Below are positions 20,979-41,041 of a stretch of 64,000 nucleotides of DNA, piece after piece; the stretch's first letter is position 1; each line of letters opens with the position of its first letter. Under the pieces are notes generated by a model. The model did not search any database, was not told the DNA's origin, and was given only the letters and a program-made list of their open reading frames with translations. The translations under genes and the position numbers were made by a program. This DNA comes from Candidatus Sericytochromatia bacterium (lineage in GTDB: Bacteria > Cyanobacteriota > Sericytochromatia > UBA7694). The stretch spans positions 210,753 to 274,752 of the forward strand of contig JADMKE010000003.1 in assembly GCA_018780035.1 (NCBI GenBank), given 5' to 3'.

Positions 20979-21001
20979 GGGCGGGTTCTTTCAGGTTCTA
21001 A

Positions 21002-22163: not shown

Positions 22164-22906
22164 GGCTGATCTCGCAAAGCTTCAAAGTTGGGGGCCGGAT
22201 TTAAAGTCGGCAAAAAGGTCTCACGTGTGCCCGTGTGGGCCAAGAGCCAGAGCGGCAGGGTTGCGATCATGGCCCCTTCGCCATTGAGGGCGTAGAGTTT
22301 TTCTTGAAAGCGGTTCCAAACGGGCATGGCCAGGGTTTCTGTCCCTTGTGTGCGCAGGGAGTCGAGCAGGGTTTCTGCCGCCATTTGGCAGGCAAAGACC
22401 TGGCTGCCTTGGTCGGGGCCGCGGCGCCAGGTGAAATAGCCATAGGCCCTGCAAATCGCGGGTCTGACCGGATAAATGGTGCACATGCCTGCGACCAAAA
22501 ACGGGCATTGTGAGCAGCCAAAGGGCGGCAGGGGCAAGTCGGTCTTGGGCGCAGCAATCCTTGCCTGCTCTTGTAAAAACAGTTCCAATTGCGGGCGGTG
22601 CAGTGCCTCGTTTTGGGAGATGACCTGGGCGCGCAGACCCTCGGGCATGGTTTTAGCCATATAACCGTGAATATGTCGCCACTCCAAAGCGGTCACACGC
22701 GGCAAACCACTGTCGATACAGCATTGGCTGCAGCCAGCTTTGCAGGGAATGGCCGGGTATTCGTTTTCGACCAAAAAGACCAAAAATTCGATCAGGTAAT
22801 ACAGATCTTTGACATCATCACTTTCGCCGACATTGGTCGCGGCCTGTAAGAGGTTCCAGGTTTGTGAGATATTAATCTGTAGATTGGTGGTTGAATGCGA
22901 TGTCAC
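22160..22906 (-). CDS. YkgJ/UPF0153-family putative Fe-S/zinc-chelating protein (CxxCxxCC)
   Basis: The motif CKAGCSQCC is followed by additional Cys pairs (CSQCPF, CRAYGYF). Confidence 0.55.
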   Translation of the reverse strand: MTSHSTTNLQINISQTWNLLQAATNVGESDDVKDLYYLIEFLVFLVENEYPAIPCKAGCSQCCIDSGLPRVTALEWRHIHGYMAKTMPEGLRAQVISQNEALHRPQLELFLQEQARIAAPKTDLPLPPFGCSQCPFLVAGMCTIYPVRPAICRAYGYFTWRRGPDQGSQVFACQMAAETLLDSLRTQGTETLAMPVWNRFQEKLYALNGEGAMIATLPLWLLAHTGTRETFLPTLNPAPNFEALRDQP

Positions 22907-24290: not shown

Positions 24291-24805
24291 CAGTTGCCCT
24301 GTTCATTCATTTTGACAAACATAATTGAGCCATTGAGCCGGTAGCCAAAGGCATCCAGTTCAACTGTATTGCCCACTTTGAGGTGATAACCGCCCATGAT
24401 CACGCCTTCGTCGGTGACTTCGGCCTGGTCTTTGAAGACCAGATCGACATCTTTGATCTCTGGCGCAGTGGGATCAGGCAAAGCCACCATTTGGTCTTTG
24501 GAATTGAGCAGGGGGATTTTGCGCTCACGCATCGTGGTTTTGATGACTTCAACCGGGGCATAGCGCTGGTTGCGGATCGTCAAAAAGGCCTTTTCACCCA
24601 CTTTAAAAATACTGGGGTCCAGCACGCGCACGCCGCGAATGGCAATTGTCACCTCGGCAGTGCCCCGGGCTTTGACCACTTTATTTAAAGGTGAGTTGCC
24701 CTTGGCCACCCAGCCGATGCCGGCCAACATGGCGACCAGAATAATCGCAAACGAAAAGTCGATAATATTGACTTTTCCAAAGAGTTTTCCTTGAGAATCA
24801 ATCAT
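24290..24805 (-). CDS. Membrane-anchored DUF4330-like protein
   Basis: N-terminal TM helix then a beta-rich domain. It overlaps the upstream kinase gene by 8 nt. Confidence 0.5.
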   Translation of the reverse strand: MIDSQGKLFGKVNIIDFSFAIILVAMLAGIGWVAKGNSPLNKVVKARGTAEVTIAIRGVRVLDPSIFKVGEKAFLTIRNQRYAPVEVIKTTMRERKIPLLNSKDQMVALPDPTAPEIKDVDLVFKDQAEVTDEGVIMGGYHLKVGNTVELDAFGYRLNGSIMFVKMNEQGN

Positions 24806-26413: not shown

Positions 26414-27524
26414 CTACACCACCGCACCCATATTTTGCCGAAGCCAGGCCTCAATAAAACCATCAATTTCTCCATCCATCACCGCATTTAAATTGGAGGT
26501 TTCAAAATCTGTGCGGTGGTCTTTGACCATTTTATACGGATGAAAGACATAAGAGCGAATCTGGCTACCCATGCTGGCTGAAACCGGCCCACCTTTAATA
26601 TCTGCCAGTTTTTGCTGATGGGCCAGACGTTCGCGCTCATAGAGTTTTGCCTTGAGGATTTTCATGGCTGTGTCTTTGTTCATGAGCTGAGATCGTTCGT
26701 TTTGACAGGCCACAACAATCCCCGATGGCAAATGGGTGACGCGCACAGCCGTTTCTACTTTATTGACGTTCTGGCCACCGGCCCCACCTGAGCGAAACGT
26801 GTCGATTTTGAGATCGACTGGGTTAATTTCGACTTCGATTCGGTCGTCAATCACGGGCGTAATCTCAACTGAAGCAAATGAGGTTTGACGCTTGCCATTG
26901 GCATTAAACGGGGAGATTCTCACCAGACGGTGGGTGCCTTTTTCGGCATTGAGCAAACCATAGGCGTGGTTGCCCGTGGCCACAAAGGTGGCACTTTTGA
27001 TCCCCGCTTCATCGCCTTCGGTCCGGGAGATCAAATCCATTTTAAATTGGCGTTTTTCGCCCCAACGGGTATACATACGCAGGAGAATTTCTGCCCAATC
27101 CTGTGCGTCGGTACCGCCTTCGCCGGAAGTGATGGTGACAATGGCTGGGGATTGGTCGTAATCCCCACTCAACATGCGCTCAACTTCCCATTGACGCAAT
27201 TCATTGCCCAAACTTTCGAGTTGGGCGAAGAGATCTGGCAAAAGGGCGCTGTCATTTTCGGCCCGCGCCATTTCTAACAATTCTTGACTCTCTTGTAGGG
27301 TGCTCTCCCAGCGAACAATGCGGCCATATTCTGTTTGCAAGGCAGTGAGATCTTGGGAGCGGCGGGCGGCCTCTTCAGGATGGTCCCAAAAACCGGGCTG
27401 CTGGGTTTCTATTTCGAGGCTTTCGATTCGGGATTGTAATTCAGCGAGGTCAAAGCGACCTCCGGATGTCTTGATACTGCGCGCTTAACTGGCGCAGGGG
27501 CTCTTCAATCTCGTGAAATTCCAT
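26414..27524 (-). CDS. prfB: Peptide chain release factor 2, with programmed +1 ribosomal frameshift
   Basis: The SPF and GGQ motifs are present. The short frame-0 [27 protein letters not shown] ends in CTT TGA C and continues in the +1 frame into the 308-aa ORF. The +1 join is frame-consistent. Confidence 0.9.
27449..27463 (-). promoter_or_regulatory. prfB: RF2 autoregulatory +1 frameshift site (internal SD-like GGAGG, then CTT TGA C)
   Basis: The minus-strand sequence reads CC GGAGG TCG CTT TGA C. It has the canonical slippery CUU-UGA-C with an SD-like element 3 nt upstream. Confidence 0.85.
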
Positions 27525-27597: not shown

Positions 27598-28164
27598 TCA
27601 GTGTTTGAGCGGGGTAAGTCCCAAATCCAGGAGGCATTTTTGAAAAAGCGCTTCAGCGGAGATCTCAGGGCTGACCTCTAAGACAAGCTCTGGATTGAGG
27701 GGCCATTCTGGTTCAATATCTATTCCCACCACATTCTGAATTTCACCCGCAAGTCCGCGGCTGTAGAGTTGTTTGGGATTTCGCTGCAAGAGTACCTCAA
27801 ATGGGGGCTTTAAAACGATTTCGGCATACCCAGGCAAATGCTGCCGGTTCCAAGCTTGAACCTCGTGAAAGAGCGAGATCGTGGCGCAGACCACATTGAT
27901 CCCCTGAATGGCGAGCATATGACTAAGATGACTGTACCGCCAAGCCAAATCCAAGCGTTCAGTTCGGGAATAGCCAGTTTTGCCAAAGACTTCGCGTAAG
28001 ACATCCCCATCGAGGTAGACCACGGCTAGTCCTTGAGTGCGAACAAACTGAAAGAGCTGTCGTCCCAGGGTGCTTTTTCCCGAGCCGGCCAACCCAGTAA
28101 TCCAATACACAGTGGGAATTTCTGAGCGCGGTTCGGGACGCTGAAACGCTGATGAAAAGGGCAT
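27598..28164 (-). CDS. cysC: Adenylylsulfate (APS) kinase
   Basis: P-loop GLAGSGKST and overall APS-kinase length and pattern. There is no adjacent ATP sulfurylase. Confidence 0.88.
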   Translation of the reverse strand: MPFSSAFQRPEPRSEIPTVYWITGLAGSGKSTLGRQLFQFVRTQGLAVVYLDGDVLREVFGKTGYSRTERLDLAWRYSHLSHMLAIQGINVVCATISLFHEVQAWNRQHLPGYAEIVLKPPFEVLLQRNPKQLYSRGLAGEIQNVVGIDIEPEWPLNPELVLEVSPEISAEALFQKCLLDLGLTPLKH

Positions 28165-28258
28165 AATGATCTGAAGTATCCCAATTGAATCAATAATACA
28201 TACATGATATGATACCCCGAAATGCGTTTTTTGATAACTTCGATTTACATTAGGTTCA

Positions 28259-30043
28259 ATGAATATTAGTCAAGTTTTTGATCCCCGATTTACGCCTCCA
28301 CTCCATCTCGATACGGATCCACCACTGGCTACAGATGTTTTTTTAATTGTTTTAGATGCCCATTCTTCCATCCAAATTGCTTATCAATGGTGTTTGGCTT
28401 TTTTGCATCAGTTTACCCAATCCGATCAGGTAAGTTTATTGATACTGGCAGACCCTCTGCATATTGGTCATTTACTTGATCATTTAATGAACAAACTTGA
28501 ACAATTGGAATTGCCCAATTCCGCGCCAGATTTAGTGATCTGGTCAGAAGAAATTGCAGAAACAGATGAACCAGCTTTATATGCCCGCTGTTTGGCATAT
28601 TTGGATTGCAATTCAAGAGATGAAATTTCACTTCCATTACTCAAAGCTATTTTTATGAATAAGCAAGTGGTTTGTTTTAAAGGTAAAGCAACAGAAGAGT
28701 GGATAAAACCCGGATATGGGTATTTTTTAAATCACTTAACTGATACGGAAACGGCTTATCGTCAGGCGTTATTTGAGCTTTATCACCGTTTGCTCAAACT
28801 TTATCCGCGCAAACTGGCAAGCAATTATTTAGCAAAAAATCCACATTTTACTTTGCCGTTTGAGATCGAACTCAATATTCAATCATTCAGTCCCACAGAT
28901 TTTAGAACACAAACAATGGGGATCTATGAACAAGGCTATGTAAAAGAAGCTGCCATGCTTCTGGTCTATTGGGCCCAGAACCACCCGCTGGGTATCTCTG
29001 CGGTTATCGATAATAATAACTTCTGGTTGAAAATATTAAAAGATGCCAGATTATATGAACCATTAAAAATTATAAACAAACATATAAATGCAAATAATCC
29101 AGAAAATGAATTTCTTTTATTGGCAGAAATTCTTATTCAAGAAGGAAATATTGAAGAAGCGGTTCAAAATTATCACAAAGTATTAAGCATAAATCCTTAT
29201 GAAATGAATGCCAAAGTAGGATTTGAGAAAGCCAATTTAATCCTTAAGCGAAGATCAGAAATTCCGCCCATATTTCTAAATGGCATCGGTAACCCAGCAA
29301 GTGAGTATATTAGTATCTTACTCTCTCGGGGTCTGGATATCCCGCGAATGAGTATTTCATCGGGAATCGGAATCTTTGAACTGGTCGTTGATGTGTATTC
29401 TCTTGAAAAATTAGCGCAAGGGGGCTGCTTGGCCAAAGACCATTTATCGCCAAGTGATGTAAATCTTTTTGCGCTTACCCGTTATTTAGACAAAATGATT
29501 TTGGGGCTGAGAGATCCCCGTGGCAGTTTGGTTTCTTGTGTTGTCTATGAAAGTTTTTTGAACAGCGAAGACAAAGCGAGTAAAGACGAAAATCTATACA
29601 CTGCTCGCGCCATGTTTTCAGATAAAGCTGAGTGGATAGACCATTTTTTATCACTAAATTTTCATCAAAAATGCGATAAAATGATAGAAGATGGTACGTT
29701 TGAACATTATTTGAATGATGTTGTTAACTGGTTGGATGTTGCTCAATATTATCCTATTTTCATTTACACCTTTGAAGAGTTTAAACAGGATGAAATGGGG
29801 GTAATTCAAAATATTTTAAACTATTATGACCTCTCTTCAGATTATTTTCGATTTCCCTTTACACAGGCAGATCGCCAAGGTTCCGTCTTTAGCAGCACTC
29901 CTGATACGGCCTCTCCAAATTACACTTTGCGCCGGGGAAATCCCTATGAATGGCACAGTGTTTTGACACCTGCTCAATTAGAGAAAACCACTTCTCTCAT
30001 GCCCCATGGCCTCTGTAAGAAGATGGGGTGGTTAGAAATTTAA
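28259..30043 (+). CDS. Large fusion protein: N-terminal Rossmann-like/TPR-like region + C-terminal sulfotransferase-like domain
   Basis: The C-terminal half carries an RDPR (3'-phosphate-binding-like) motif and a terminal RRGNPYEWHSV resembling the sulfotransferase RKG..G.W motif. It is AT-rich and a paralogue of the next gene. Confidence 0.55.
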   Translation: MNISQVFDPRFTPPLHLDTDPPLATDVFLIVLDAHSSIQIAYQWCLAFLHQFTQSDQVSLLILADPLHIGHLLDHLMNKLEQLELPNSAPDLVIWSEEIAETDEPALYARCLAYLDCNSRDEISLPLLKAIFMNKQVVCFKGKATEEWIKPGYGYFLNHLTDTETAYRQALFELYHRLLKLYPRKLASNYLAKNPHFTLPFEIELNIQSFSPTDFRTQTMGIYEQGYVKEAAMLLVYWAQNHPLGISAVIDNNNFWLKILKDARLYEPLKIINKHINANNPENEFLLLAEILIQEGNIEEAVQNYHKVLSINPYEMNAKVGFEKANLILKRRSEIPPIFLNGIGNPASEYISILLSRGLDIPRMSISSGIGIFELVVDVYSLEKLAQGGCLAKDHLSPSDVNLFALTRYLDKMILGLRDPRGSLVSCVVYESFLNSEDKASKDENLYTARAMFSDKAEWIDHFLSLNFHQKCDKMIEDGTFEHYLNDVVNWLDVAQYYPIFIYTFEEFKQDEMGVIQNILNYYDLSSDYFRFPFTQADRQGSVFSSTPDTASPNYTLRRGNPYEWHSVLTPAQLEKTTSLMPHGLCKKMGWLEI

Positions 30044-31851
30044 TGACACAACAGTCACTTATTCAAGAAACTTCTGAATGGATTGAAAAATACCAACCTC
30101 TTTCTGTGCCCCCGATTGCAAAATGGGCAGAACAGTTCCAAAGTGTTTTTTTGGTTATTGACTCCTGTTTTGAATCCCTTGAATTGGCAGAACTGTGTCG
30201 CCAATTTCTTGAAACGCATCTGGAAAATAAGTCCACGGCACTCATCATCGCCCGAAGTGCGCGTGAAACAATGGATTTGACGATACCCATTCACACTTGT
30301 TTAATCCAAATTAATAATAGCCAAAATCCAACTGATTTTTTTAAGCTGCTTGCCAGTGTGCATGCCTTGATTTTGCCCAACTTAAGAGAAGAGATTCAAT
30401 CAGAGGCTCTTGCTGCCTTATTAATGAATCGTCCTGTGCTCTTGTATCAGATCCCCCAGACGCAATATGATTGGGGAGAAGGTCTTTTAATACCCACTCA
30501 GATCGGATTTAAAGGGCTCTTGAACAGCTTTATTTCGCGCAGAGAATTATTAAGACCCCGTCAGCTTTTGCTGGATGTTCCAAATCTTAAAGCCGCTGTC
30601 TTTGCTTCAGGATTATTGGCGTATTTTCCCAATCGACCCGATTTGGAAACCATTGAAGCCTATATGAACGCTGGATATTTTGAACAGGCAGGGGTTTTAG
30701 CCGTAACTTTGTTGCGCAATTTACATTGGTTAAATGAAGAGTGGCAGCCAGAAAAAGGGCTGAAAATTATGAAAGCCTGTCTTTTGGGGAAAAAATATTT
30801 TGAGGCAATTAAAATTGGTCGAAAAATACTTTCATTCATGCCTGAAAATAGTGCTTTGGCACTGTATTTGGCCGTCGCTTTTTGGGGGATAAAAGACTTT
30901 ATTCAGGCCCAACTATTTTTAGAGAGAAGTCTATCTGCTGAAGATAAAACAGAGACAAAGAAAGAATTTGAGAATATTATTTTAGTTGACGAATTAAATA
31001 TTAAAATAAATAAATCTATTTCAAAATGTCTTGAATTACCAATAATTATTTTTAACCCTATTTCCAGGTTGTCAGCGTCTCATTTTATCGCCCAAACCTT
31101 ATCTCAATCTTTATCATTGCCACTTGTTCATCTCTCTACTGGCTTGGAAATAGGAACTTCAAATACGCTTCATTTTGAACGTACAGCAGAGTTGATTTAT
31201 AAAAAGCAAGGTGCTCTGGCCTTTGACCGCTGGCCGGCAACAGAAACCAATCACTATTTTTTACTTAAATTTTTCAAAAGTATGGTTGTACATGTGCGAG
31301 ACCCACGCAGCATTTTGGTCTCTTTGGGTATTTACCTCCATCATCTCTTAGAGCTGGATAAAAAAGCAGAGCTTCCAACTCAGTTTCAGAGATCGCTCAA
31401 ATTGATTCATTGGGATCTGCGTTTGCGCAGTTTTTCAGCCATGGTTCCCGGCCCAAAACAGATAGAATATGGCTTGGAATCGGGTCTTTTCCAAGCTTAT
31501 TTAAATGAAATATTGGCTTGGCTAGAATTAGAAAAAACCTTTCCATCTAGCTTTAAAATCTTGATTACAAGCTATGAGCAATTGATAAAAAATCAGGCAT
31601 CTTACTTTAAACAAATCATTGATTTTTATCAAATTAACCCCGATTTTTTTGACTATCAGGTAGAATCAATTAATAGTTTGAATTCTGTTTTTGGTCCTAC
31701 TCCAAACCCTGATTCCCCCCATTATTTTTTTCGCAGGGGTGATCCAAATGAATGGACCCAATTTGTTTCTGAATCCCAAAAAAAGCAGATGACAAATGCA
31801 ATTCCCAATGCCTTGTTTGAACGCTTTGAATGGGATCCCGCGCCGAGATAA
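30043..31851 (+). CDS. Paralogous fusion protein with C-terminal sulfotransferase-like domain
   Basis: Motifs VHVRDPRSILVS and FFRRGDPNEWTQF match the upstream paralogue, and the N-terminal segments also align (SVFLVIDSCFESLE vs DVFLIVLDAHSSIQ). TAATG stop/start overlap. An alternative GTG start lies at 30028. Confidence 0.55.
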   Translation: MTQQSLIQETSEWIEKYQPLSVPPIAKWAEQFQSVFLVIDSCFESLELAELCRQFLETHLENKSTALIIARSARETMDLTIPIHTCLIQINNSQNPTDFFKLLASVHALILPNLREEIQSEALAALLMNRPVLLYQIPQTQYDWGEGLLIPTQIGFKGLLNSFISRRELLRPRQLLLDVPNLKAAVFASGLLAYFPNRPDLETIEAYMNAGYFEQAGVLAVTLLRNLHWLNEEWQPEKGLKIMKACLLGKKYFEAIKIGRKILSFMPENSALALYLAVAFWGIKDFIQAQLFLERSLSAEDKTETKKEFENIILVDELNIKINKSISKCLELPIIIFNPISRLSASHFIAQTLSQSLSLPLVHLSTGLEIGTSNTLHFERTAELIYKKQGALAFDRWPATETNHYFLLKFFKSMVVHVRDPRSILVSLGIYLHHLLELDKKAELPTQFQRSLKLIHWDLRLRSFSAMVPGPKQIEYGLESGLFQAYLNEILAWLELEKTFPSSFKILITSYEQLIKNQASYFKQIIDFYQINPDFFDYQVESINSLNSVFGPTPNPDSPHYFFRRGDPNEWTQFVSESQKKQMTNAIPNALFERFEWDPAPR

Positions 31852-31882
31852 TTAAAGCCAATTTTAAGCTGAGAAGGAAGAA

Positions 31883-32641
31883 TTGATGATGAAAACCGAA
31901 TGGAATTATACTGAACTCGCAGAATCTTATTTAGAGCGTCCTGATTATTCGGAAGCTGCAGTCCATGAAATGCTCGCCCAGATGCAATTGCCCGAAAAAG
32001 CCAAGGTCTGTGATGTGGGAGCCGGCGTTGCTCATTTGACCAAAGTTCTGGCTCGCAGCGGTTTGGTGGTTGATGCGGTTGAGCCCAACGACCGGATGCG
32101 TGAATTGGGCCAAGTTCAAACCCGCTCCTTTGATCAGGTTACCTGGTTTGAAGGTACGGGAGAGGTGACGGGGCGCCCAGATTCGACGTATCAACTGGTT
32201 ACTTTTGGTTCTTCTTTTAATGTCACAGATCGTTTGAAGGCCCTGGCTGAAACCCGTCGAATTTTGGTGCCCGCAGGTTGGTTTGCCTGTATGTGGAACC
32301 ACCGAAATCTCGAAGACCCCATCCAAAAGTCGATTGAAAATGTGATAATAAAGTCCATTCCCAATTATGCTTACGGAACCCGTCGGGAGGACCAGCGCCA
32401 ATTTCTCGAAGAGAGTGGCTTTTTTGACACAGTCTTCGCTTTAGAAGGCAATGTTATCCACCGTCAAAGCCGAGAAGCGTGTTTGACGGCTTGGCGTTCG
32501 CATGCCACTTTGCAAAGACAAGCGGGGGACCGTTTCTCTCAGGTCATTCAAGACATTGATGCGCATTTAGAAACATTGGGCCTAAAGGAGTTAGAAATTC
32601 CTTACACCACACGCATTTGGTTCGGCTCTGTAAAGGCTTAA
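31883..32641 (+). CDS. Class I SAM-dependent methyltransferase
   Basis: Motif I VCDVGAGVAHLT and motif post-I VVDAVEPN. Length is 252 aa. Confidence 0.78.
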   Translation: MMMKTEWNYTELAESYLERPDYSEAAVHEMLAQMQLPEKAKVCDVGAGVAHLTKVLARSGLVVDAVEPNDRMRELGQVQTRSFDQVTWFEGTGEVTGRPDSTYQLVTFGSSFNVTDRLKALAETRRILVPAGWFACMWNHRNLEDPIQKSIENVIIKSIPNYAYGTRREDQRQFLEESGFFDTVFALEGNVIHRQSREACLTAWRSHATLQRQAGDRFSQVIQDIDAHLETLGLKELEIPYTTRIWFGSVKA

Positions 32642-32649
32642 CTTCTTTC

Positions 32650-34953
32650 ATGCGTAGCAAAGCAGAAACGCTTCAATTTTTACACGGTCAACTCAGTTCA
32701 GCAACCGTTTTGCCGCTTTACTGTTTTAACCTAAATCAATGGCAAAACCAACGAGAACAGATTTGGCTTGACTTGGCCGAGTTAACTTGGACCAAGTTGC
32801 CTGTGATCGTTCGCAGCAGTGCTCTTAACGAAGACAGTGAGCTCACGTCTATGGCGGGACATTATTGTTCAGTTTTAAATGTCTCTGGAAAATATGCCTT
32901 GGAACAGGCGATTGAGCAGGTTGCAGCTGGCTTTCAAGGTCGCACGGATGCCGACCAAATTTTTATTCAACCCATGTTGAGTCAAATCGCTTTAAGTGGG
33001 GTGGCTTTTAGTCAGGAGCCCAGTACGGGCATTCCCTGTTTGGTCTTTAATTACCAGGAATGTAGCCAAGATACGACGGCGGTTACAGGGGGGCATTCAA
33101 ATGAACTCAATACCTGGCATTATTACCTTCACAACAATCCCACTCCTCCCCAATCCAGGTTCAGGCCTCTGCTGGATTTGGTCAGCGAATTACAGCTAAA
33201 ACTGGGAATTTCTGCCCTGGATTTGGAAGTGGCTTTGCTGCAAAATGGCCAATGGGTACTTTTGCAAGTCCGACCCTTGGTGCTAGAAAACAGCTTGGAT
33301 GGCAGTCAGCACCTCAACCACATGCTTGAATTACAGGGTTTTCTCAAACCGATGCAGTCCCCCCATCCTTTTTTATATGGCCAGCACACAGTTTATGGTG
33401 TGATGCCTGATTGGAATCCTGCTGAGATCATCGGGATTCGGCCACGACCTTTGGCCCGCAGTTTATACCAAGAGTTGATTACCGATAGTATTTGGGCCTA
33501 TCAACGTCACAATTATGGCTACCGCAATTTGCGCAGTTTCCCCTTGATGGTTGATTTGGGGGGCTGTCCTTATATTGATGTGAGGGTCAGCTTTAACTCA
33601 TTTATTCCAGCCACTTTGCCACCAGCATTGGCTGAAAAATTGGCCGATTATTATCTCAAGCGTTTGGTCGAAACACCCAGTTACCACGACAAAGTTGAGT
33701 TTGAAATTATTTATTCTTGTTATACCCTGGATTTGCCCCAACGCCTAAAAGCCCTTCAGGATCATGGATTTAGCCAGGAGGAATCTGATTTATTGGCAGA
33801 AAGTTTGCGACTTTTAACCAATAAAATTTTGCATCAAGAAACCGGACTTTGGCAAAAAGATATCGCCAAACTCGAGATCTTGACCCAACGGCGAGAAACT
33901 ATCTGCTCTGCAGATCTTGGGCCGATTGATCGCATTTATTGGTTGCTCGAAGATGGCAAACGTTATGGCACTTTGCCTTTTGCCGGCCTCGCACGGGCAG
34001 GATTTATTGCTGTTCAAATGCTCAATTCGTTGGTGCAAATTGGTGCCTTGGACCCTTCCGAACGCTCGCTATTTATGCAAAGTTTGGATACCGTCAGCAG
34101 CCGGATTCAACGCGATTTTCAAGCAATGAACCGCAGCGATTTTTTAAAGATCTATGGCCATCTTCGGCCAGGCACCTATGATATTCTCTCAGAGCGCTAT
34201 GATCAGGCGCCAGATCGCTATTTTGGCGAAGCCATACAACCCACCGTTCACCCCCCATTTAGCCTGCGGCTCGAACAGCTCAAGCTGATCCGTTCTCATC
34301 TCCAAGAACATGGTTTAAATTTAGATGTTTTGGAGCTCTTCGACTTTATGAAAGCGGCAATTGAAGGCCGTGAATACGCCAAATTTTTATTTACCCGCAA
34401 TCTCAGCGATGTTTTGGAAGAAATTGCAGGGCTCGGCAGACAAGCTGGGATGAGCAGAGAAGATTGTTCTTTTTTGGATATTCAATCCCTGCTGCGTTTG
34501 TTAAATACCAGTGGCGATCTCAACCAAGCGATTAAACACAGTGTGGAAGCAGGCAAAGCCCAGTACAGCTTAACCCAATCCCTGTTATTGCCCCCTCTGA
34601 TTACCCAACCTGAAGATATCTGGCAATTTGAACTTCAGCCAGGTGAGCCCAATTTTATTACGCTCAAACGGGCCAAAGGCCCTGTCTGCTTTGTGGGCGC
34701 TGCGCCTGAAAGCCTGAAGGGAACGATCTTGCTCATACCCAGTGCCGATCCTGGTTACGATTGGATTTTTGGCTATGGGATTGCGGGTTTGATCACGCTT
34801 TATGGCGGAGTCAATTCACATATGGCGATACGGGCAGGTGAAATGGGCATTCCCGCCGTGATCGGCGCAGGCGAAGTGCTCTATTCCCAATGGCAAAAAG
34901 CCCGTGAATTGGAGCTGGATTGTGCCACGCGGCAGGTCAGGGTTTTAGCATGA
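32650..34953 (+). CDS. PEP-synthase/pyruvate-phosphate-dikinase-like His-phosphotransferase lacking the C-terminal PEP/pyruvate TIM-barrel domain
   Basis: The N-terminal PPDK_N-type ATP-grasp region (LPVIVRSSALNEDSELTSMAGHYCSVLNV) is paired with a C-terminal PEP-utilisers mobile His domain (GGVNSHMAIRAGEMGIPAVIGAG). There is no PEP-utilizers_C TIM barrel. Confidence 0.78.
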   Translation: MRSKAETLQFLHGQLSSATVLPLYCFNLNQWQNQREQIWLDLAELTWTKLPVIVRSSALNEDSELTSMAGHYCSVLNVSGKYALEQAIEQVAAGFQGRTDADQIFIQPMLSQIALSGVAFSQEPSTGIPCLVFNYQECSQDTTAVTGGHSNELNTWHYYLHNNPTPPQSRFRPLLDLVSELQLKLGISALDLEVALLQNGQWVLLQVRPLVLENSLDGSQHLNHMLELQGFLKPMQSPHPFLYGQHTVYGVMPDWNPAEIIGIRPRPLARSLYQELITDSIWAYQRHNYGYRNLRSFPLMVDLGGCPYIDVRVSFNSFIPATLPPALAEKLADYYLKRLVETPSYHDKVEFEIIYSCYTLDLPQRLKALQDHGFSQEESDLLAESLRLLTNKILHQETGLWQKDIAKLEILTQRRETICSADLGPIDRIYWLLEDGKRYGTLPFAGLARAGFIAVQMLNSLVQIGALDPSERSLFMQSLDTVSSRIQRDFQAMNRSDFLKIYGHLRPGTYDILSERYDQAPDRYFGEAIQPTVHPPFSLRLEQLKLIRSHLQEHGLNLDVLELFDFMKAAIEGREYAKFLFTRNLSDVLEEIAGLGRQAGMSREDCSFLDIQSLLRLLNTSGDLNQAIKHSVEAGKAQYSLTQSLLLPPLITQPEDIWQFELQPGEPNFITLKRAKGPVCFVGAAPESLKGTILLIPSADPGYDWIFGYGIAGLITLYGGVNSHMAIRAGEMGIPAVIGAGEVLYSQWQKARELELDCATRQVRVLA

Positions 34954-35570
34954 CTTCCAGTTTAAACCAACACCCTTGGCTGGCAATCACCCAACGCGTT
35001 GAGATCGATGCCAAAACGGGTGAACGGCGAGATGCGCTTGATCAGCGCTGGGTTGATTTTATTTTGCTTGCAGGATTTTTGCCTTTGCTTTTACCCAACT
35101 CGCTTGCTGCTGCTCAAGCCCTTTTAGCGGCGTGTCGGGTTCAAGGTATTGTGTTAACTGGCGGCAATAGTCTGCAGAGCTGTGGTGGCAATGCACCTGA
35201 GCGAGATGAATTGGAGTTTTGGCTTCTGAATCAGGCTCCAAAACAGCATTGGCCACTGCTGGGCGTCTGCCGAGGAATGCAAGTCATTCAGAGCCATTTG
35301 GGCGTTGCCTTGGAGCCTGTCAGTGACCAGATTTTAGCCCTGCAAACGATTCAGATCTCAGGAAAAAACCAAGTCGTGAATAGTTATCACAGTTGGGGGA
35401 CGCGTGTAGAACACCCCGAACTCAAGACCTGGGCTCAAACGGAGGATGGGATGATTAAAGCGATTAAACATATCGAGCGACCCTGGTGGGGGATTATGTG
35501 GCATCCCGAACGCCTGACCCCCTTTCGCAGCGAAGATTTGACCTTGTTTCGTGAAATCTTTAAGCCATGA
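34950..35570 (+). CDS. Class I glutamine amidotransferase-like / peptidase C26 gamma-glutamyl hydrolase family protein
   Basis: Nucleophile elbow GVCRGMQ and the His in WHPE are present. The ATGA start/stop overlap with the upstream gene suggests translational coupling. Confidence 0.75.
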   Translation: MTSSLNQHPWLAITQRVEIDAKTGERRDALDQRWVDFILLAGFLPLLLPNSLAAAQALLAACRVQGIVLTGGNSLQSCGGNAPERDELEFWLLNQAPKQHWPLLGVCRGMQVIQSHLGVALEPVSDQILALQTIQISGKNQVVNSYHSWGTRVEHPELKTWAQTEDGMIKAIKHIERPWWGIMWHPERLTPFRSEDLTLFREIFKP

Positions 35571-36343
35571 GCCCCGTTCAACATGGCATCATTCTGGCTG
35601 CTGGCAGGGGCAGCCGCTTGGGAGCGATGACAGAAGCCCTGCCGAAGGGGCTGGTTGAATTGGGGGGGCGCCCACTTTTAAACTGGCAAATCGACGCTCT
35701 GCGCCACTCGGGATTGAAAGATTTGGGGATTGTGCGGGGATACCGGGCCGAGGCCTTGTCCTTCCTCGGTTTGCAAACATTTGAGAACCCCCGCTGGCAA
35801 CAGACCCAGATGGTCAGGTCTTTGGCCTGTGCAGGTGATTGGTTGCAGCAATACCCGTGTTTGCTGAGCTATTCTGATATTTTGACTTCAGCAGCCTGTT
35901 TGCGGGCTTTGGCTGATTGTCCCGGTGAATTGGTGATCAGTTCAAATCAGGGCTGGCGCGCCCTTTGGCAGGCCCGTTTTGCCGATCCTCTGGCAGATGC
36001 TGAGAGCTTTAAAACCAATGGACAAGGACAATTGCGTGAAATCGGTGCCCGTGCCAAGACCTTGGATGAGATCGAAGGACAGTATATGGGCCTGCTCAAA
36101 ATCACCCCCCAGGCCTGGAAATGGATTTCAAATTTATTGGCAGAAATGGAGCCGGAGCAGGCCGACCGCTTGGATATGACCAGTTTATTACAAACTTTGC
36201 TTCAGCGGGGATATCCCATTCAGGTTTTGCCCGTAAATGCACCTTGGCTGGAAATAGATACCTGCGAAGATCTGGCGTATTACCAACATTGTTTAAAAAT
36301 TGGCAAGCTGACACTGCCCATGCAAGACCCGGTGCTGTGGTAA
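35567..36343 (+). CDS. LicC-like nucleotidyltransferase (cytidylyltransferase for a phospho-headgroup)
   Basis: N-terminal GIILAAGRGSRLG and C-terminal W.EIDT.EDL are characteristic of phosphocholine/aminoethylphosphonate cytidylyltransferase-type NTP transferases. ATGA overlap with the upstream gene. Confidence 0.72.
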   Translation: MSPVQHGIILAAGRGSRLGAMTEALPKGLVELGGRPLLNWQIDALRHSGLKDLGIVRGYRAEALSFLGLQTFENPRWQQTQMVRSLACAGDWLQQYPCLLSYSDILTSAACLRALADCPGELVISSNQGWRALWQARFADPLADAESFKTNGQGQLREIGARAKTLDEIEGQYMGLLKITPQAWKWISNLLAEMEPEQADRLDMTSLLQTLLQRGYPIQVLPVNAPWLEIDTCEDLAYYQHCLKIGKLTLPMQDPVLW

Positions 36344-36379: not shown

Positions 36380-36997
36380 ATGAAAATCCTGGCCGTTTGT
36401 GGTACTACCCACCACGAAAGCAATTCAGGCCAAATCACTGAAATCATTGCCGCCGCGGCACGCTCGGCTGGGGCTGAAGTGGATGTGTTGGATTTATTGG
36501 CTTCGCCCTTGCCGCTTTTTCGCACAGATCAGAGTTATGAAAATGACCAGATTGTGACCGAGGTTCGCCAAGCCTGCCAAGCAGCAGATGCCTTTATCTT
36601 GGTCTCTCCGGAGTACCACGGTTGTATGACTGGTTGGATGAAAAATTTTCTCGATTTTCACTACCATGAATTTGCGGGCAAACTCTTTGTCCTGGCCGCT
36701 ACCACAGGCGGTAGCTTGGGAGTGAGCTGTATTACTCAAATGCGTGTGGCAGTTCAGCATTGCCATGGTTGGTCCTTGCCTTATCAAGCGGCCGCCCGCG
36801 AAGCGGATTTTGACAGCAAAGGGCAATTGGCCAATGATTCAGTGCGTGAGCGTTTGGAGCGCATGGGCCGCGATTTGGTGATCTATGGAAAACTCTTGCG
36901 CGACCAATTCACAATTGACCGCCAGGGGGCCCTTGAAACCCATGACACCCCCCATGAGTGGGGCTTTGCTGGCTGGTATTCCCGCGGTTCAGATTAA
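36380..36997 (+). CDS. NAD(P)H-dependent FMN reductase (flavodoxin-like fold)
   Basis: Pattern MKIL.V.GT....S......I.......G.E....L. and LVSPEYHG. GGAGG RBS. Confidence 0.75.
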   Translation: MKILAVCGTTHHESNSGQITEIIAAAARSAGAEVDVLDLLASPLPLFRTDQSYENDQIVTEVRQACQAADAFILVSPEYHGCMTGWMKNFLDFHYHEFAGKLFVLAATTGGSLGVSCITQMRVAVQHCHGWSLPYQAAAREADFDSKGQLANDSVRERLERMGRDLVIYGKLLRDQFTIDRQGALETHDTPHEWGFAGWYSRGSD

Positions 36998-37015
36998 ACA
37001 GCGGTCATCCAGCGC

Positions 37016-38644
37016 GTGTGGGAATTCGGCTGGTTAAAAAAACACCCTTGGACGCTGGTATTAGCGATTCTGGGGCTTTGCATACATTTGGGGCTGACCC
37101 TACAATTAATCCCGCTCGCAAGGCAATTGGAGCCTTTGCTTCGCGAATTTCAACTTTCAGCTTTTGTCTCTTTTATTGCGCTTTTGTTGGGGATTTATGC
37201 CGCCAAAGGGCTTTTTGATTGGCTCCAACGGGTTGCCTGGAGCCAGTTGGTCTTGCAGCGCAGCATGGAGCGCCGCTTGGACCTTTACAGCTATTTATTG
37301 CAAATGCCACTGAGCCGTTGGCAAAATGAGCAAAGTGGCGATCTTCAAGCCCGACTGACTGTGGATCTGCAAGAGCTTGAAAATGCCAGTTTAAACCAAC
37401 TCAGCCGATTTTTTCCCAATTTGCTGCAGGTAATTGTGCTCATATTCTATCTGATCTGGCTCAATCCGATTCTGACTTTGGTGACAGCCTTGCTATTGCC
37501 TTTGGGATCCCTCAGTTTGAATTTAACCAGCTTGCGATTGCGGCACTGGTCCGAAACTTTGCAAACGGAGCGGGGACAACTCTTTGCTGAAATCGCTGAC
37601 AGTTTACAGGCCTTGCCCAGTCTTTGGCCCTTGCAGGTCAGCTCATGGCTCGAAAACAGGCTGAATCAGATCCAAAAAAAATTAATGCTCGCCCAACGCA
37701 AACAAGTCGCTTGGCGGGCCCTGCAAGGACCCCTGCTGGGTTGGGTTCAAGCTTTGGCTCTGGGTTTGGTGCTGCTAAGTGGGGCTTGGCAGGTGCAAAG
37801 TGGCAGGGCGAGCGTCGCCGATTTGCTGGCCTTTGGCACAGCTTTGGCGCTGAGCATTGATCCTGTCTTGGCCTGTGTCGAAGCCTGGGGTCTGGTTCAA
37901 AGTGCTCTGCCTGCTCAAAAGAGACTGGCGGAGCTCTTGCCAACACAGCGACAGCCCTCTGCCTCCGTCTTCACTCTGATGCCCCAAGAAAGTCCCCATT
38001 TACTTGAAATCAGATCGGTTGATTATCGCTATCCTGGCCAGCCTGCCCTGTTTCAAAACCTCAATCTGGTCTTGCCTGCCCATAAATGGAGCGCATTACT
38101 TGGAGCTTCGGGGGGGGGCAAATCCACCCTTTTGCATCTTTTGGCTGATGTTTTGCCGATGCAAACAGGCCAGCGATTGATACGAGAGGATCTTCACAAG
38201 GCCGTCTTGGTGCCCCAAAAATCGGCCTTCCTCAATTTAAGTGTGGGGGAAAATCTCTGTTTGGGTCGAGACATTAACGCCGATGACTTGGATGAAGTCT
38301 TGGAAATCTGTCAAATCAACACCTTTCTCAATAATTTGCAGTTGGGGTTGGCCAGCCCGATGGGCAATCAGGGCAGCCTCTTTTCTGGGGGTGAGCGACA
38401 GCGCATCGCTCTGGCAAGGGCTTTATTGGCCAAGCCCCAGCTTTTGCTATTAGACGAAGCCACCTCTGAATTGGACCCACTGACAGAGGGCAATTTGCTG
38501 AAAGCCCTTAAACGAATGCGGCCGGATTTGACCTGCCTGTGGGTGAGCCACCGCCCTGAGAGTTTGCAAGAAGTCGAATACTTTCTCTCGCTCACACATG
38601 GTACAATCAGCGTAATCGACAGCAGAGACGGATCACATGTTTGA
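37016..38644 (+). CDS. ABC exporter, fused permease-ATPase
   Basis: An N-terminal 6-TM exporter domain is followed by an NBD with Walker A GASGGGKST, signature FSGGERQRIALARAL and Walker B LLLLDEATS. It has a GTG start. Confidence 0.82.
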   Translation: MWEFGWLKKHPWTLVLAILGLCIHLGLTLQLIPLARQLEPLLREFQLSAFVSFIALLLGIYAAKGLFDWLQRVAWSQLVLQRSMERRLDLYSYLLQMPLSRWQNEQSGDLQARLTVDLQELENASLNQLSRFFPNLLQVIVLIFYLIWLNPILTLVTALLLPLGSLSLNLTSLRLRHWSETLQTERGQLFAEIADSLQALPSLWPLQVSSWLENRLNQIQKKLMLAQRKQVAWRALQGPLLGWVQALALGLVLLSGAWQVQSGRASVADLLAFGTALALSIDPVLACVEAWGLVQSALPAQKRLAELLPTQRQPSASVFTLMPQESPHLLEIRSVDYRYPGQPALFQNLNLVLPAHKWSALLGASGGGKSTLLHLLADVLPMQTGQRLIREDLHKAVLVPQKSAFLNLSVGENLCLGRDINADDLDEVLEICQINTFLNNLQLGLASPMGNQGSLFSGGERQRIALARALLAKPQLLLLDEATSELDPLTEGNLLKALKRMRPDLTCLWVSHRPESLQEVEYFLSLTHGTISVIDSRDGSHV

Positions 38645-38930
38645 ATCGGATTTTTCGCAATTGCCTGTACAGGGGTTCATACCCAGGCCAAAAGCATGGC
38701 CCCAAAACTTTCCCCAAGAACTCGTAAGCCCTGAAAAAAGCTTGCGAACTCGGGCATTGGGAGAATTGGCCGAAAGCAAGTCAACGCATAAAATCGCTGT
38801 GCTGGTAGAATTGCTCAAACACGAACAAGATCCAGACTTATACCTTCAGGCCAAAGCACTTTTATTGCAATTGTCAGACTCTGCCAAGACCCATTCCCGT
38901 TGGGACCCCTATGGCCAATTTCGGATCTGA
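38637..38930 (+). CDS. Small HEAT-repeat-like protein
   Basis: 97 aa. An ATGTTTGA overlap with the ABC gene stop suggests coupling. The HEAT-like motif is LRTRALGELAESKSTHKIAVLVELLKHEQDPDLYLQA. Confidence 0.4.
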   Translation: MFESDFSQLPVQGFIPRPKAWPQNFPQELVSPEKSLRTRALGELAESKSTHKIAVLVELLKHEQDPDLYLQAKALLLQLSDSAKTHSRWDPYGQFRI

Positions 38931-38947
38931 GAAACAGGCCCAGAGAA

Positions 38948-41002
38948 ATGCCTAAAAATACCTCTTTGATGGCACGCAGGCACCTGCGCGAGGCAGATGC
39001 CTTGAAACATTTGGGCCAATTTGATGCCGCAGAACGCCTTTACCGGCGGATTTTGCGCCTGGATCCCCAGTCTTTTGAAGCTGCTTACCAATTGGGTTTG
39101 GTCGCAGAAAAAAAAGGATTCCCAGATCGGGCAGCCCACTTTCACCGCCGTGCCATTGTTCACAATCGTCGCTATGCCCCACCTTATCTCCGACTGGGCC
39201 AGATTTACGAGCTTAACAATGATTTTTACAAGGCCTTGATGGCGTATGGTGAATATTTATTGCGAATTCCCAAAAGTGTAAGTGGTGATGCCTATCTGCG
39301 GTTTGCCCGAATGTTGACACTTTTGGAACAAGACGAAATGGCATTGCCCTTTTATCTGCAATCGCTGGAATTTATGCCTGCAGATGCCACCACCTATTTT
39401 TTGTTGGCAGAGACCTTGCAAAACCGGGGGGATTTGGATGGGGCACTTGAATGTTTTATGGCCTTGGGTAAAATCAACCCGATTGCATTGCCGCTGATTT
39501 CTTTTTTTATGGGCTATTTGCTCGAAAAAAATGGCGAATATACCGCCGCCCTTAAATGTTATGATCAGGCCCTGGAACATCCTGGGCAATTACAGATCTG
39601 GAAACTCAAACGGGATTTGGCCTACCCGCTGATTATGCAAAGCCGCGAAGAAATTGAAGCCTTTGAGAAAAAACTCAAAAAAGTCCTTTTCGATTTCCGC
39701 TTTGCCCTCTTAAAAAACCCTTTGAGCCCCAACAACCAAAATCACTATTATTTCAGCATGTTGCAGTTGAATATTGTACATATTGCCTACCATCACTACA
39801 ATCCTTTGCCTTTGCGGCGTGAATTTGCCGAGTTATTGCCTCAGTTTTTGCCACCTGTCAATTTGCCTGCTTGGCAACCGCGCAGCCATGCTGGTCATTT
39901 GATTCATCTCGGCCTGATCTGTGCTCCGAAAAGCCTAAATATGGCCTTTGCCTATGCGGGTGCGCTCTTTAATGAATTGGACCCTTCCCGCTACCGGATC
40001 ACCGTCTTTTGTCATTCGCCCAAAGTCAGCCAGATTTTTAACCCCCAGAACCGCTATTGCTTTAACCATCCCAATGCCAGTTATCGGGTGATCTCGCGGG
40101 ATTATGCTGAAGCAGCCAAACAGATTCGGGCAGAAGAATTGGATTTGCTGATGTTTACCGAACCCAGCTGGGACTCGTTTCAATATTCGCTCTCCTCTCT
40201 GCGCTTGGCCCGCGCCCAGGGCACGTCTTGGATGAATCCCGGCACCACCGGCATGCCCGAGATGGACTATTTTTTCTCTAGCGAATTAATGGAGCGCCCA
40301 GGCGCTGAAAGTGATTATTCAGAAACCCTGGTCAAATTTAAAACCCTGCCCTCTCATTTGCCGCTCTATCCCTTTCCAGAGGATCCTGTTTCCCGTTCGG
40401 ATTATGGCTTGGAAGGGGTTAAACGCCTCTATAGCTGTCCTCAGACTTTGCTCAAATTCCACCCGGATTTTGATCCGATTGTGGCTGAAATCTTGCGCCG
40501 TGACCCCGAGGGCCATCTCGCGCTGTTGGCGACCAAACAGCAGGGACAGCTCTGCGATATTTTGCTCAAACGCTTTCAAACAACCATTCCAGACGTGATG
40601 GATCGCATTTGGGTTTTACCCGAAATGCCCGTGCCAGACTTTTTGGGACTCTTGCGCGTCAGTGATGTGGTCCTTGATCCGCTTTATTATGGTGGGGGCA
40701 CCACCACTTACCAGGCCATGGCTTATGGTATTCCGATCATCACCCTGCCCACCGAACGGATGGTCGGACGAATCACGTCTGCCCTTTACAAAAAGATGGG
40801 GCTCACCGACACCGTCGCCACAGATCCCGAAAACTATATCCAATTGGCCAATCGCTATGCCATGAACCCCGAATTGCGGGCCGGCATTGTCGAAGGGACT
40901 TTGGCTCAGAGCATTTTATTTGAAGACCGGGCGATCATTGCTGAATTTTCAGAATTTATGGAAGATGTTGTCGCGGGGCGGCGCACCCCCAGATCCAATT
41001 AA
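38948..41002 (+). CDS. TPR-repeat glycosyltransferase, GT41 (O-GlcNAc-transferase/SPINDLY-like) C-terminal domain
   Basis: N-terminal TPRs. The C-terminal LDPLYYGGGTTTYQAMAYGIPIITLP matches the OGT-family catalytic region. The start could also be 38900. Confidence 0.68.
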   Translation: MPKNTSLMARRHLREADALKHLGQFDAAERLYRRILRLDPQSFEAAYQLGLVAEKKGFPDRAAHFHRRAIVHNRRYAPPYLRLGQIYELNNDFYKALMAYGEYLLRIPKSVSGDAYLRFARMLTLLEQDEMALPFYLQSLEFMPADATTYFLLAETLQNRGDLDGALECFMALGKINPIALPLISFFMGYLLEKNGEYTAALKCYDQALEHPGQLQIWKLKRDLAYPLIMQSREEIEAFEKKLKKVLFDFRFALLKNPLSPNNQNHYYFSMLQLNIVHIAYHHYNPLPLRREFAELLPQFLPPVNLPAWQPRSHAGHLIHLGLICAPKSLNMAFAYAGALFNELDPSRYRITVFCHSPKVSQIFNPQNRYCFNHPNASYRVISRDYAEAAKQIRAEELDLLMFTEPSWDSFQYSLSSLRLARAQGTSWMNPGTTGMPEMDYFFSSELMERPGAESDYSETLVKFKTLPSHLPLYPFPEDPVSRSDYGLEGVKRLYSCPQTLLKFHPDFDPIVAEILRRDPEGHLALLATKQQGQLCDILLKRFQTTIPDVMDRIWVLPEMPVPDFLGLLRVSDVVLDPLYYGGGTTTYQAMAYGIPIITLPTERMVGRITSALYKKMGLTDTVATDPENYIQLANRYAMNPELRAGIVEGTLAQSILFEDRAIIAEFSEFMEDVVAGRRTPRSN

Positions 41003-41041
41003 AACGGAACACCCCGTTTGAGCTTTGGGTTGGGCCTTACA

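Follow-up and report, generated by a model that had tools for sequence, protein, structure and literature searches.

A putative phosphoramidate glycan-modification module with sulfotransferase-fold proteins in Candidatus Sericytochromatia

What does a bacterial operon make when two sulfotransferase-like proteins stand in it beside a methyltransferase, a large phosphohistidine-type kinase, a hydrolase and a cytidylyltransferase, and a relative of adenosine 5'-phosphosulfate (APS) kinase faces it from the other strand? The question is raised by a seven-gene locus (positions 27598-36343) in a 64-kb stretch of DNA, called the window here, on contig JADMKE010000003.1 of a Candidatus Sericytochromatia metagenome-assembled genome (MAG). 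An earlier, sequence-only reading had taken the locus for a sulfation island dependent on 3'-phosphoadenosine-5'-phosphosulfate (PAPS). Our analysis indicates instead a glycan-modification module of the phosphoramidate type, akin to the O-methyl phosphoramidate (MeOPN) system, in which the two tandem sulfotransferase-fold proteins (T1 and T2) would serve as phosphoramidyl transferases. We place the probability of this reading, T1 and T2 included, at roughly 0.7. That the core donor pathway is encoded in the locus is, judging from its sequences, very probable, and a phosphoramidyl-transfer role for T1 and T2 is probable.

The proposed donor pathway

All seven open reading frames (ORFs) of the sequence-only reading were found where it had placed them. 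Pfam comparison supported the domain called for each protein, including the sulfotransferase domains, which exceed the Sulfotransfer_1 gathering cut-off of 22 bits (Table 1). The stop codon of T1 and the ATG of T2 overlap by 1 nt (TAATG at 30043), and ATGA overlaps join the kinase gene to the C26 gene (34950-34953) and the C26 gene to the nucleotidyltransferase gene (35567-35570). The start/stop overlaps described earlier therefore hold at three junctions and fail at two, where a 34-nt gap that includes a GGAAG motif separates T2 from the methyltransferase gene and an 8-nt gap, counted from ATG starts, separates the latter from the kinase gene. Putative promoters, identified by consensus match only, face both ways from the divergent intergenic region: TTGAAT-17-TATGAT with an extended TG at 28185-28213 on the plus strand and TTATCA-17-TATCAT at 28237-28209 on the minus strand. 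No Rfam family was found in the window, and terminator-like sites are no more frequent than expected by chance. The operon-like layout thus holds, as does the order of events proposed for it, in which a kinase step is followed by activation of a small polar group as a CDP derivative.

The combination of genes had not been recognised from described pathways. However, it has the content and order of the Campylobacter jejuni cj1422c-cj1415c MeOPN pathway (PMC11800397, PMC3907429). In C. jejuni NCTC 11168, Cj1418 (L-glutamine kinase), Cj1416, Cj1417 and Cj1415 turn glutamine, ATP and CTP into CDP-phosphoramidate 3'-phosphate (PMC11800397), while Cj1421 and Cj1422, transferases defined by genetics, each serve a different position on the sugar (PMC3907429). 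In Campylobacter the O-methyl group gives a characteristic 1H-31P HSQC cross-peak near 3.7 ppm 1H (PMC3907429). Transcription there runs from cj1422 to cj1415 through two transferases, methyltransferases, glutamine kinase, hydrolase, cytidylyltransferase and kinase (PMC3907429, PMC11800397). The two loci encode the same types of enzyme, namely a small kinase, a nucleotidyltransferase, a C26 protein, a glutamine kinase of ~770 aa, one or more methyltransferases and two tandem transferases of ~600 aa. They also share the order transferase, transferase, methyltransferase, glutamine kinase, hydrolase, cytidylyltransferase.

The 767-aa protein was first described as a kinase of the phosphoenolpyruvate (PEP) synthase family. 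It does carry PPDK_N and PEP-utilizers domains, but its scores on PEP synthase models are far below cut-off. It reaches 924 bits against the NCBIfam equivalog NF004508 (cut-off 501) and only 30-50 bits against models of PEP synthase, pyruvate phosphate dikinase (PPDK) and rifampin phosphotransferase (Rph), where the PEP synthase and Rph cut-offs are 600-1000. We take NF004508 (PRK05849) to have been built on Cj1418. A PEP synthase or PPDK role was rejected, since the scores are 10-20 times below the cut-offs of those models. More than 7500 homologues occur in many phyla; the Joint Genome Institute (JGI) gives the name 'glutamine kinase' to several that are 52-69% identical, and many bear a fused APS_kinase domain. 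One protein from a Candidatus Sericytochromatia MAG (P0001) is 100% identical to the 767-aa protein and starts at ATG 32650. The swivelling domain contains the motif GGVNSHMAIR with His724, and the G-G-x-N-S-H-M-A-I-R columns are invariant in 28 homologues; similarity to structures in the PDB is confined to the ~50-residue His domain. By these sequence criteria the protein belongs to the family that includes the glutamine kinase Cj1418, and we predict that it is an L-glutamine kinase.

A scan of metagenome contigs yielded at least 582 loci encoding a relative of this kinase. Eighty were fetched and then searched with profiles that drew on the window together with six reference loci; 23 of them, from diverse phyla, were flanked by at least 3 kb on both sides (well-flanked loci). 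The expectation that the genes co-occur was borne out for the core genes in 20-23 of these 23: the C26 gene is present in 20, the methyltransferase gene in 21, the cytidylyltransferase gene in 22, directly after the C26 gene, and an APS-kinase-fold kinase in all 23, fused to the glutamine kinase in eight. Across the 80 loci the set of kinase, hydrolase, cytidylyltransferase and methyltransferase is near-constant, and fusion of the APS-kinase-fold domain to the N-terminus of the glutamine kinase was seen in about 25 (in the range L011-L090), in proteins of ~930-1000 aa. The same six-gene set was also found in an alphaproteobacterial MAG (L005) and in a locus with a fused kinase (L006). Most of the fusion proteins (P0033, P0076, P0078, P0081 and others) are annotated as PEP synthase or as phosphohistidine swivelling-domain protein. 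A 10-kb contig of a viral metagenome assembly (L083; ENA OOMY01000050) carries a glutamine-kinase module with kinase, methyltransferase and sulfotransferase-like genes.

The small divergent kinase had been read as a stand-alone APS kinase that produces PAPS. It possesses a P-loop (GLAGSGKST) and an LDGD motif, and its homology to APS kinases in the PDB is clear (E 3e-24). Nevertheless, the only NCBIfam model it passes is NF004041 (185 bits, cut-off 127), and it falls below the cut-offs of the canonical CysC models TIGR00455 (101.5 vs 138.7), NF002059 (103 vs 244) and NF003013 (84 vs 163). The same score pattern was obtained for a kinase domain fused to glutamine kinase (P0081) and for the adjacent kinases of L002, L004 and L005, which marks NF004041 as a subfamily linked to glutamine kinase. 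Based upon these scores, the kinase is most likely a cytidine diphosphoramidate 3'-kinase, the counterpart of Cj1415, and not a source of PAPS.

Were the kinase a true CysC, it would make PAPS for T1 and T2, and the PPDK-like, C26 and LicC-like proteins would activate an unrelated polar group as a CDP derivative. The APS_kinase match and the related PDB structures fit such a PAPS-dependent island, as do the sulfotransferase domains and the LicC-like N-terminus of the cytidylyltransferase. However, the kinase passes NF004041 alone, a subfamily whose members are, in all of the well-flanked loci, joined to glutamine kinase or encoded beside it. The best match of the C26 protein is a CDP-amidate hydrolase, and the published pathway accounts for the whole set of genes, its end product needing exactly such a kinase (PMC11800397). 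Further, the large ORFs of the window showed neither an ATP sulfurylase nor a CysD/CysN domain, so the earlier remark that no ATP sulfurylase adjoins the kinase was correct and extends to the other genes of sulfate activation. We regard a PAPS-dependent island as highly improbable.

The remaining enzymes are likewise consistent with a phosphoramidate donor. The C26 protein was first likened to a gamma-glutamyl hydrolase. Its best NCBIfam match is not a hydrolase of the folate or 4-aminobutyrate (GABA) type but NF045546, gamma-glutamyl-CDP-amidate hydrolase (108 bits, with the next family at 55), and C26 proteins of modules in other phyla score alike on this model (112-124 bits). Cys107 (GVCRGMQ) and His185/Glu187 (WHPE) are present, and we propose the protein as a gamma-glutamyl-CDP-amidate hydrolase, the counterpart of Cj1417. 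The nucleotidyltransferase bears an N-terminal GIILAAGRGSRLG signature and a GxGxR loop. It had been called a LicC-type cytidylyltransferase; its NTP_transf_3 domain was confirmed, but the likeness to LicC (PDB 1jyk) is limited to residues 7-67, the first ~60 residues or so, and represents a generic nucleotide-binding N-terminus (E 7e-10). A role as CTP:phosphoglutamine cytidylyltransferase is proposed from its sequence and from a gene position that is the same as that of Cj1416. For the methyltransferase, with its S-adenosylmethionine (SAM) motif I VCDVGAG, we propose O-methylation of the phosphoramidate, as a counterpart of Cj1419/Cj1420; the methylated product foreseen by the sequence-only reading is thus probable. 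The expected catalytic residues are all present in the five enzymes (kinase, methyltransferase, glutamine kinase, hydrolase and nucleotidyltransferase).

Taken together, these assignments suggest the following pathway. After the predicted glutamine kinase has acted, the NTP_transf_3 enzyme would join phosphoglutamine and CTP to form CDP-L-glutamine, from which the C26 hydrolase, through its Cys-His-Glu residues, would release glutamate and leave cytidine diphosphoramidate. Phosphorylation of the 3'-OH by the APS-kinase-fold enzyme would yield 3'-phospho-cytidine-5'-diphosphoramidate, the P-N analogue of PAPS. T1 and T2 would then place the phosphoramidyl group on a glycan or glycoconjugate precursor in the cytoplasm, at two different hydroxyls, with 3',5'-CDP leaving, and the methyltransferase would O-methylate the phosphoramidate. 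We infer the donor-synthesis steps from family membership and from the biochemistry of Cj1418, Cj1416, Cj1417 and Cj1415, and transfer by T1/T2, methylation and the identity of the acceptor from gene context alone.

T1, T2 and the group they may transfer

As first supposed, T1 and T2 are tandem paralogues of ~600 aa with sulfotransferase-like motifs in their C-terminal halves; the relationship extends over their full length (25% identity over 620 columns, E 3e-36). They share a three-part architecture, which in T1 consists of a region resembling half of a GT-B glycosyltransferase (~1-200), tetratricopeptide repeats (TPRs; ~210-330) and a sulfotransferase fold (~335-594). An AlphaFold2 (AF2) model of T1, made from a 100-sequence alignment, has a predicted local distance difference test score (pLDDT) above 90 over residues 210-594; it replaced an earlier model made from a three-sequence alignment (pLDDT 42). 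Foldseek matched the model to cytosolic sulfotransferase (SULT) structures bound to 3'-phosphoadenosine 5'-phosphate (PAP) with a probability of 1.0 and a target-normalised TM-score of 0.5-0.56, and also to the TPRs of SPY and OGT. The N-terminal domain of T1 and T2 has no Pfam match. A profile of this region gave three weak matches in the PDB (E 0.05-1.2), all of them C-terminal halves of GT-B/GT4 glycosyltransferases, and a resemblance to the C-terminal Rossmann half of GT4 enzymes is therefore only suggestive. The N-terminal ~190 residues are common to T1, T2 and the 612-aa Sulfotransfer_3 proteins of sister genomes. No membrane or secretion domains were detected in T1 or T2.

A word-indexed search with T1 returned only T1 and one relative at 59%, and an exhaustive profile search was needed to recover the family. 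It yielded 1024 relatives, of which about six clusters match over the full length and the remainder only over the C-terminal ~260 residues. Two motifs that had been picked out in T1 and T2, RDPR and RRGxPxEW, map to near-invariant columns of this family of about 1000 members, whose consensus contains PKSGS (Lys 85%), a His (96%), RDPR..S and RKGxxxEW. In T1, the loop that binds the 5'-phosphosulfate of the donor (PSB loop) reads GNPAS, with Asn in place of Lys, and the catalytic His is kept. In T2 it reads SRSAS, with Arg in place of Lys, and the family His is also replaced by Arg. The 3'-phosphate-binding residues of T1 (R418, D419, P420, R421 and S426) are conserved, and a donor nucleotide that bears a 3'-phosphate would suit this intact motif. 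Among TPR-sulfotransferase proteins not encoded next to a glutamine kinase, the nearest relatives of T1 (L008, 6848-9440; L092, 4696-6593) each adjoin a 2OG-Fe(II)/PhyH-type oxygenase gene.

The donor expected here departs from PAPS at two points only: its base is cytosine, and its terminal group is P(O)(NH2) where PAPS has SO3. Because 3'-phospho-CDP-amidate would have the geometry of PAPS, sulfotransferase-fold proteins could be expected to accompany such a module, and for the same reason the fold does not imply transfer of sulfate. Of the sulfated product proposed earlier, the sulfotransferase fold is real, but sulfation is the less likely reading. The metagenomic loci agree with an association of the fold with the pathway. 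All 23 matches to the sulfotransferase-fold profiles lie inside a module or within 1.7 kb of one, 21 of them at most 60 nt from a module gene, and there were none in 310 kb of farther flank. Two more neighbour families are sulfotransferase-like, one by Pfam and the other by hhalign (97% probability). A recognised sulfotransferase-fold gene was present in 29 of the 80 loci and in 13 of the 23 that are well flanked, or in 18 of the latter if family c1 is counted. Members of this Pfam-less family (~290 aa) occur in 11 loci, mostly beside fused-kinase modules, and contain GTGR (P-loop-like) and HPLDS motifs. Family c1 was not counted as sulfotransferase, since its hhalign matches to sulfotransferase profiles are weak (11-20% probability); it may be another class of transferase.

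Several observations weigh against the phosphoramidate reading. T1 has lost the PSB-loop Lys and T2 the conserved His, and the activity of either protein is not assured. Of the sulfotransferase-domain relatives with an assignable contig position, the closest (L008, L010 and L092) have no glutamine-kinase module within 5-10 kb, and the one in L010 adjoins an FGE-sulfatase gene. The wider family probably includes genuine PAPS sulfotransferases, and on that account the donor cannot be read from the fold. T1 and T2 (594 and 602 aa) are matched to Cj1421/Cj1422 by size, tandem arrangement and operon position only, the C. jejuni 81-176 transferases having 592 and 603 aa (PMC13317227). Among the enzymes, the 108 bits of the C26 protein are below the NF045546 equivalog cut-off of 250, the cytidylyltransferase and the methyltransferase have no family-specific model, and Cj1419/Cj1420 are themselves methyltransferases without an assigned phenotype (PMC11800397). 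We also found no chemical report of phosphoramidate from this lineage.

With these points in mind, a mixed system must be considered, in which the four core enzymes supply the phosphoramidate donor as above, T1 and T2 act as true PAPS sulfotransferases on the same glycan, and the phosphoramidyl transferase is encoded elsewhere. The Sulfotransfer_1 scores of both proteins, the superposition of the T1 model on PAP-bound SULTs, the canonical residues retained in the family consensus and the L008, L010 and L092 relatives, with the sulfatase-type neighbour in L010, are all compatible with it. Yet such a system would leave the module without a transferase for its own product. Moreover, in many phyla a sulfotransferase-fold gene directly adjoins the glutamine-kinase module, and the sampled flanks contain no others; in the sister genomes the gene that replaces T1 and T2 sits either inside the module, in the gap between hydrolase and cytidylyltransferase genes, or in the operon of the kinase. 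A PAPS supply is also hard to see, with no ATP sulfurylase in 64 kb and a sole APS-kinase-fold gene that fails the canonical CysC models, and in T1 as in T2 one catalytic residue that is canonical for sulfotransferases is missing. We consider the mixed system unlikely and favor phosphoramidyl transfer by T1 and T2.

Sister contigs, neighboring genes and the acceptor

The arrangement T1-T2-methyltransferase-kinase is common to three contigs, those of the window, L093 and L001. Orthologues of T2 are 89% identical in L093 and 39.5% identical in L001, where the glutamine kinase is 78% identical. L002 represents a near-identical organism, as judged by release factor 2 (RF2; 98% identity to the window), PfkB (97%) and FMN reductase (93%), and its core pathway enzymes are 82-87% identical to those of the window. 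In place of T1 and T2, which it lacks, a 612-aa Sulfotransfer_3 gene lies between those for the hydrolase and the nucleotidyltransferase and is read from the opposite strand. The methyltransferase of L002 (9231-9995) is only 38% identical to that of the window (31886-32641) and seems to have been exchanged together with the type of transferase. In L004 the 612-aa gene is in an operon with the kinase, and L001 has both types of transferase. All these transferase genes have a lower GC content than their neighbors. In the window, T1 (GC 0.377) and T2 (GC 0.383) form a compositional island with a GC of 0.38 and a GC at third codon positions (GC3) of 0.33, against 0.47-0.53 in neighboring genes; a check for mobile elements found no meaningful direct or inverted repeats around them. 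T1 and T2, with the methyltransferase in one sister, thus form a fast-evolving cassette of low GC content that varies from one near-identical genome to another, as is typical of variable surface-antigen decoration.

The same features could be read as signs of decay, with T1 and/or T2 as inactive remnants (scaffolds or pseudo-enzymes) beside a module that makes a soluble phosphoramidate nucleotide with another role. The missing Lys and His, the low conservation of T2 relative to the glutamine kinase and the atypical composition are in keeping with this. In contrast, three independent contigs carry both ORFs uninterrupted at ~600 aa, the motif for 3'-phosphate binding and RRG..EW are kept, T1 and T2 are translationally coupled, and fast evolution is expected of enzymes that decorate surface antigens. 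Of the explanations considered, we give a decaying cassette the least credence and return to T1 and T2 as candidate transferases.

The genes at 36380-43948 may supply or export the acceptor, although their membership in the system is uncertain. They are also found in the sister contigs L002 and L004 but not in the modules of other phyla (L005, L006), and their linkage may therefore be only inherited gene order. The cytoplasmic donor, the lack of membrane and secretion domains in T1 and T2 and these neighbors, together with the upstream Wzy_C protein, suggest that a glycan or glycoconjugate is modified in the cytoplasm and then exported. Given the TPRs and the neighboring GT41 gene, the acceptor might be a glycoprotein and not a polysaccharide.

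Other genes of the window were recorded as well. Upstream on the minus strand, 19635-24805 encodes a cytochrome P450, a rhodanese, a CxxCxxCC protein, a Wzy_C (O-antigen ligase/polymerase-like) membrane protein and a DUF4330 protein, in the same order as in L002 and L004. The release factor 2 gene prfB (26414-27524, minus strand) contains a classical programmed +1 frameshift with its site at 27449-27455: from the ATG at 27524-27522, an internal GGAGG precedes CTT TGA C, and the gene continues in the ORF 26414-27340 (PCRF and RF-1 domains). Farther downstream, 54736-63285 (minus strand) encodes a 2849-aa hybrid megasynthase of the nonribosomal peptide synthetase-polyketide synthase (NRPS-PKS) type with a TubC_N docking domain and the order C-A-T-KS-AT-KR-T-TE, flanked by genes for a clostripain-family C11 peptidase (53555-54739) and a MAPEG protein (63313-63864).

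Table 1. Features of the locus and its downstream neighbors (window coordinates), with the placed members of family c1 (coordinates of their own contigs)
Feature	Position	Strand	Basis or remark
APS-kinase-fold kinase	27598-28164	-	Pfam APS_kinase 94 bits; divergent from operon
Divergent intergenic region, 94 nt	28165-28258		promoter-like hexamers on both strands
T1, 594 aa	28259-30043	+	Sulfotransfer_1 34.6 bits, C-terminal half only; weak TPR upstream
T2, 602 aa from ATG (607 aa from upstream GTG at 30028)	30043-31851	+	Sulfotransfer_1 29.5 bits, C-terminal half only; weak TPR upstream
Class I SAM methyltransferase, 251 aa	31883/31886-32641	+	Methyltransf_11/25, Ubie_methyltran
L-glutamine kinase homologue, 767 aa from ATG 32650 (778 aa from 32617)	32617/32650-34953	+	PPDK_N and PEP-utilizers
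Class I amidotransferase/C26 hydrolase, 206 aa	34920/34950-35570	+	Peptidase_C26 83 bits/GATase
Nucleotidyltransferase, 258 aa	35567-36343	+	NTP_transf_3 63.7 bits
FMN reductase	36380-36997	+	Pfam/NCBIfam
MsbA/PglK-like ABC exporter (half-transporter)	37016-38644	+	Pfam/NCBIfam
97-aa ORF	38637-38930	+	
TPR-GT41 glycosyltransferase	38900-41002	+	Pfam/NCBIfam
968-aa GT4 protein	41042-43948	-	Pfam/NCBIfam
Family c1 members	L014 8165-9136; L020 8119-9186; L024 14596-15540; L060 16012-17010; 7 other loci		

Significance and comparison with known systems

Phosphoramidate modification of the MeOPN type is of a kind already known, and it is the lineage that is new. Noteworthy in it are the systematic association with the sulfotransferase fold, the three-part architecture of T1 and T2 and the swap of the cassette at the level of strains; a literature search turned up no paper that ties the transferases of the MeOPN system to this fold. 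Reviews describe the MeOPN group and its glutamine kinase as essentially Campylobacter-specific (PMC6429109, PMC9561416). Contrary to that picture, uncultured bacteria from many phyla commonly encode the whole donor pathway, with a sulfotransferase-fold gene as its constant companion, swapped between near-identical genomes in one lineage. Unmethylated phosphoramidate has been reported in the lipopolysaccharide (LPS) of Xanthomonas and Shewanella (PMC3907429), and a Borg element was recently noted with the pathway (bioRxiv 10.1101/2024.11.05.622173). Since the phosphoramidate transfer step has yet to be reconstituted in vitro (PMC12409886), the sulfotransferase-fold genes offer a concrete, testable candidate for the chemistry that is missing at this step. 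Annotation calls for caution too: in such clusters the labels 'adenylyl-sulfate kinase', 'PEP synthase' and 'sulfotransferase' are probably wrong, and inferences about the sulfur cycle drawn from them would be wrong too.

More tentatively, and with odds that we hold to be somewhat short of even, the sulfotransferase-fold proteins of these modules in general might be phosphoramidyl transferases that use 3'-phospho-CDP-amidate as sulfotransferases use PAPS, and MeOPN-type decoration might be widespread in environmental bacteria, reaching a basal, non-photosynthetic cyanobacterial lineage. If so, the modification, with metagenomic loci in the hundreds and glutamine-kinase homologues in the thousands, would be no peculiarity of Campylobacter. 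The transferases found here would then have gained TPR and half-glycosyltransferase domains and been exchanged between strains as a low-GC cassette.

Beyond gene content and order, the locus resembles that of C. jejuni in that the transferases vary between strains in both organisms, the divergence of T2 and the swap of the cassette paralleling the variation in C. jejuni. Differences are equally evident. The small kinase gene is divergent and upstream in the window but last in the operon of C. jejuni, and there is one methyltransferase in place of two. Poly-G tracts of the phase-variation kind are absent, the longest G or C run in T1 and T2 being 6 nt; phase variation as in C. jejuni was rejected for want of long homopolymer tracts. 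The host is a Sericytochromatia MAG of ~50% GC and not an epsilonproteobacterium, and a kps-type capsule locus is absent from the window, where Wzy_C, MsbA/PglK-like exporter, GT41 and GT4 genes are found instead. Direct comparison with cj1415-cj1422 sequence was limited to published primers: neither primer CS-1246, searched as an exact string in the genome contigs, nor a degenerate back-translation of the N-terminus MYNPNSAIERE (primer ak265) gave a match. A 45-aa query stitched from primer-derived peptide fragments had no match in the protein database, and the PDB held no structures of Cj1415-Cj1418.

The individual proteins can likewise be set beside better-known relatives. The small kinase shares the P-loop kinase fold and LDGD with CysC, but it scores below the cut-offs of the canonical models and has no partner ATP sulfurylase. 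The 767-aa protein has the ATP-grasp PPDK_N domain and the swivelling phosphohistidine domain of PEP synthase, PPDK and rifampin phosphotransferase, conserved His included, but not the TIM-barrel domain that binds PEP or pyruvate. The nucleotidyltransferase does not resemble LicC over its full length. Finally, T1 and T2 resemble PAPS sulfotransferases (SULT 1ls6, 5x2b) in the fold at T1 ~335-594, in RDPR..S and in the C-terminal R-[RK]-G..EW. They depart from them in their added half-GT-B-like and TPR domains and in the PSB-loop Lys missing from T1 and the catalytic His missing from T2. Above all, their genes are embedded in an operon for what we predict to be a cytidine-based, PAPS-like donor, with no genes of sulfate activation nearby.

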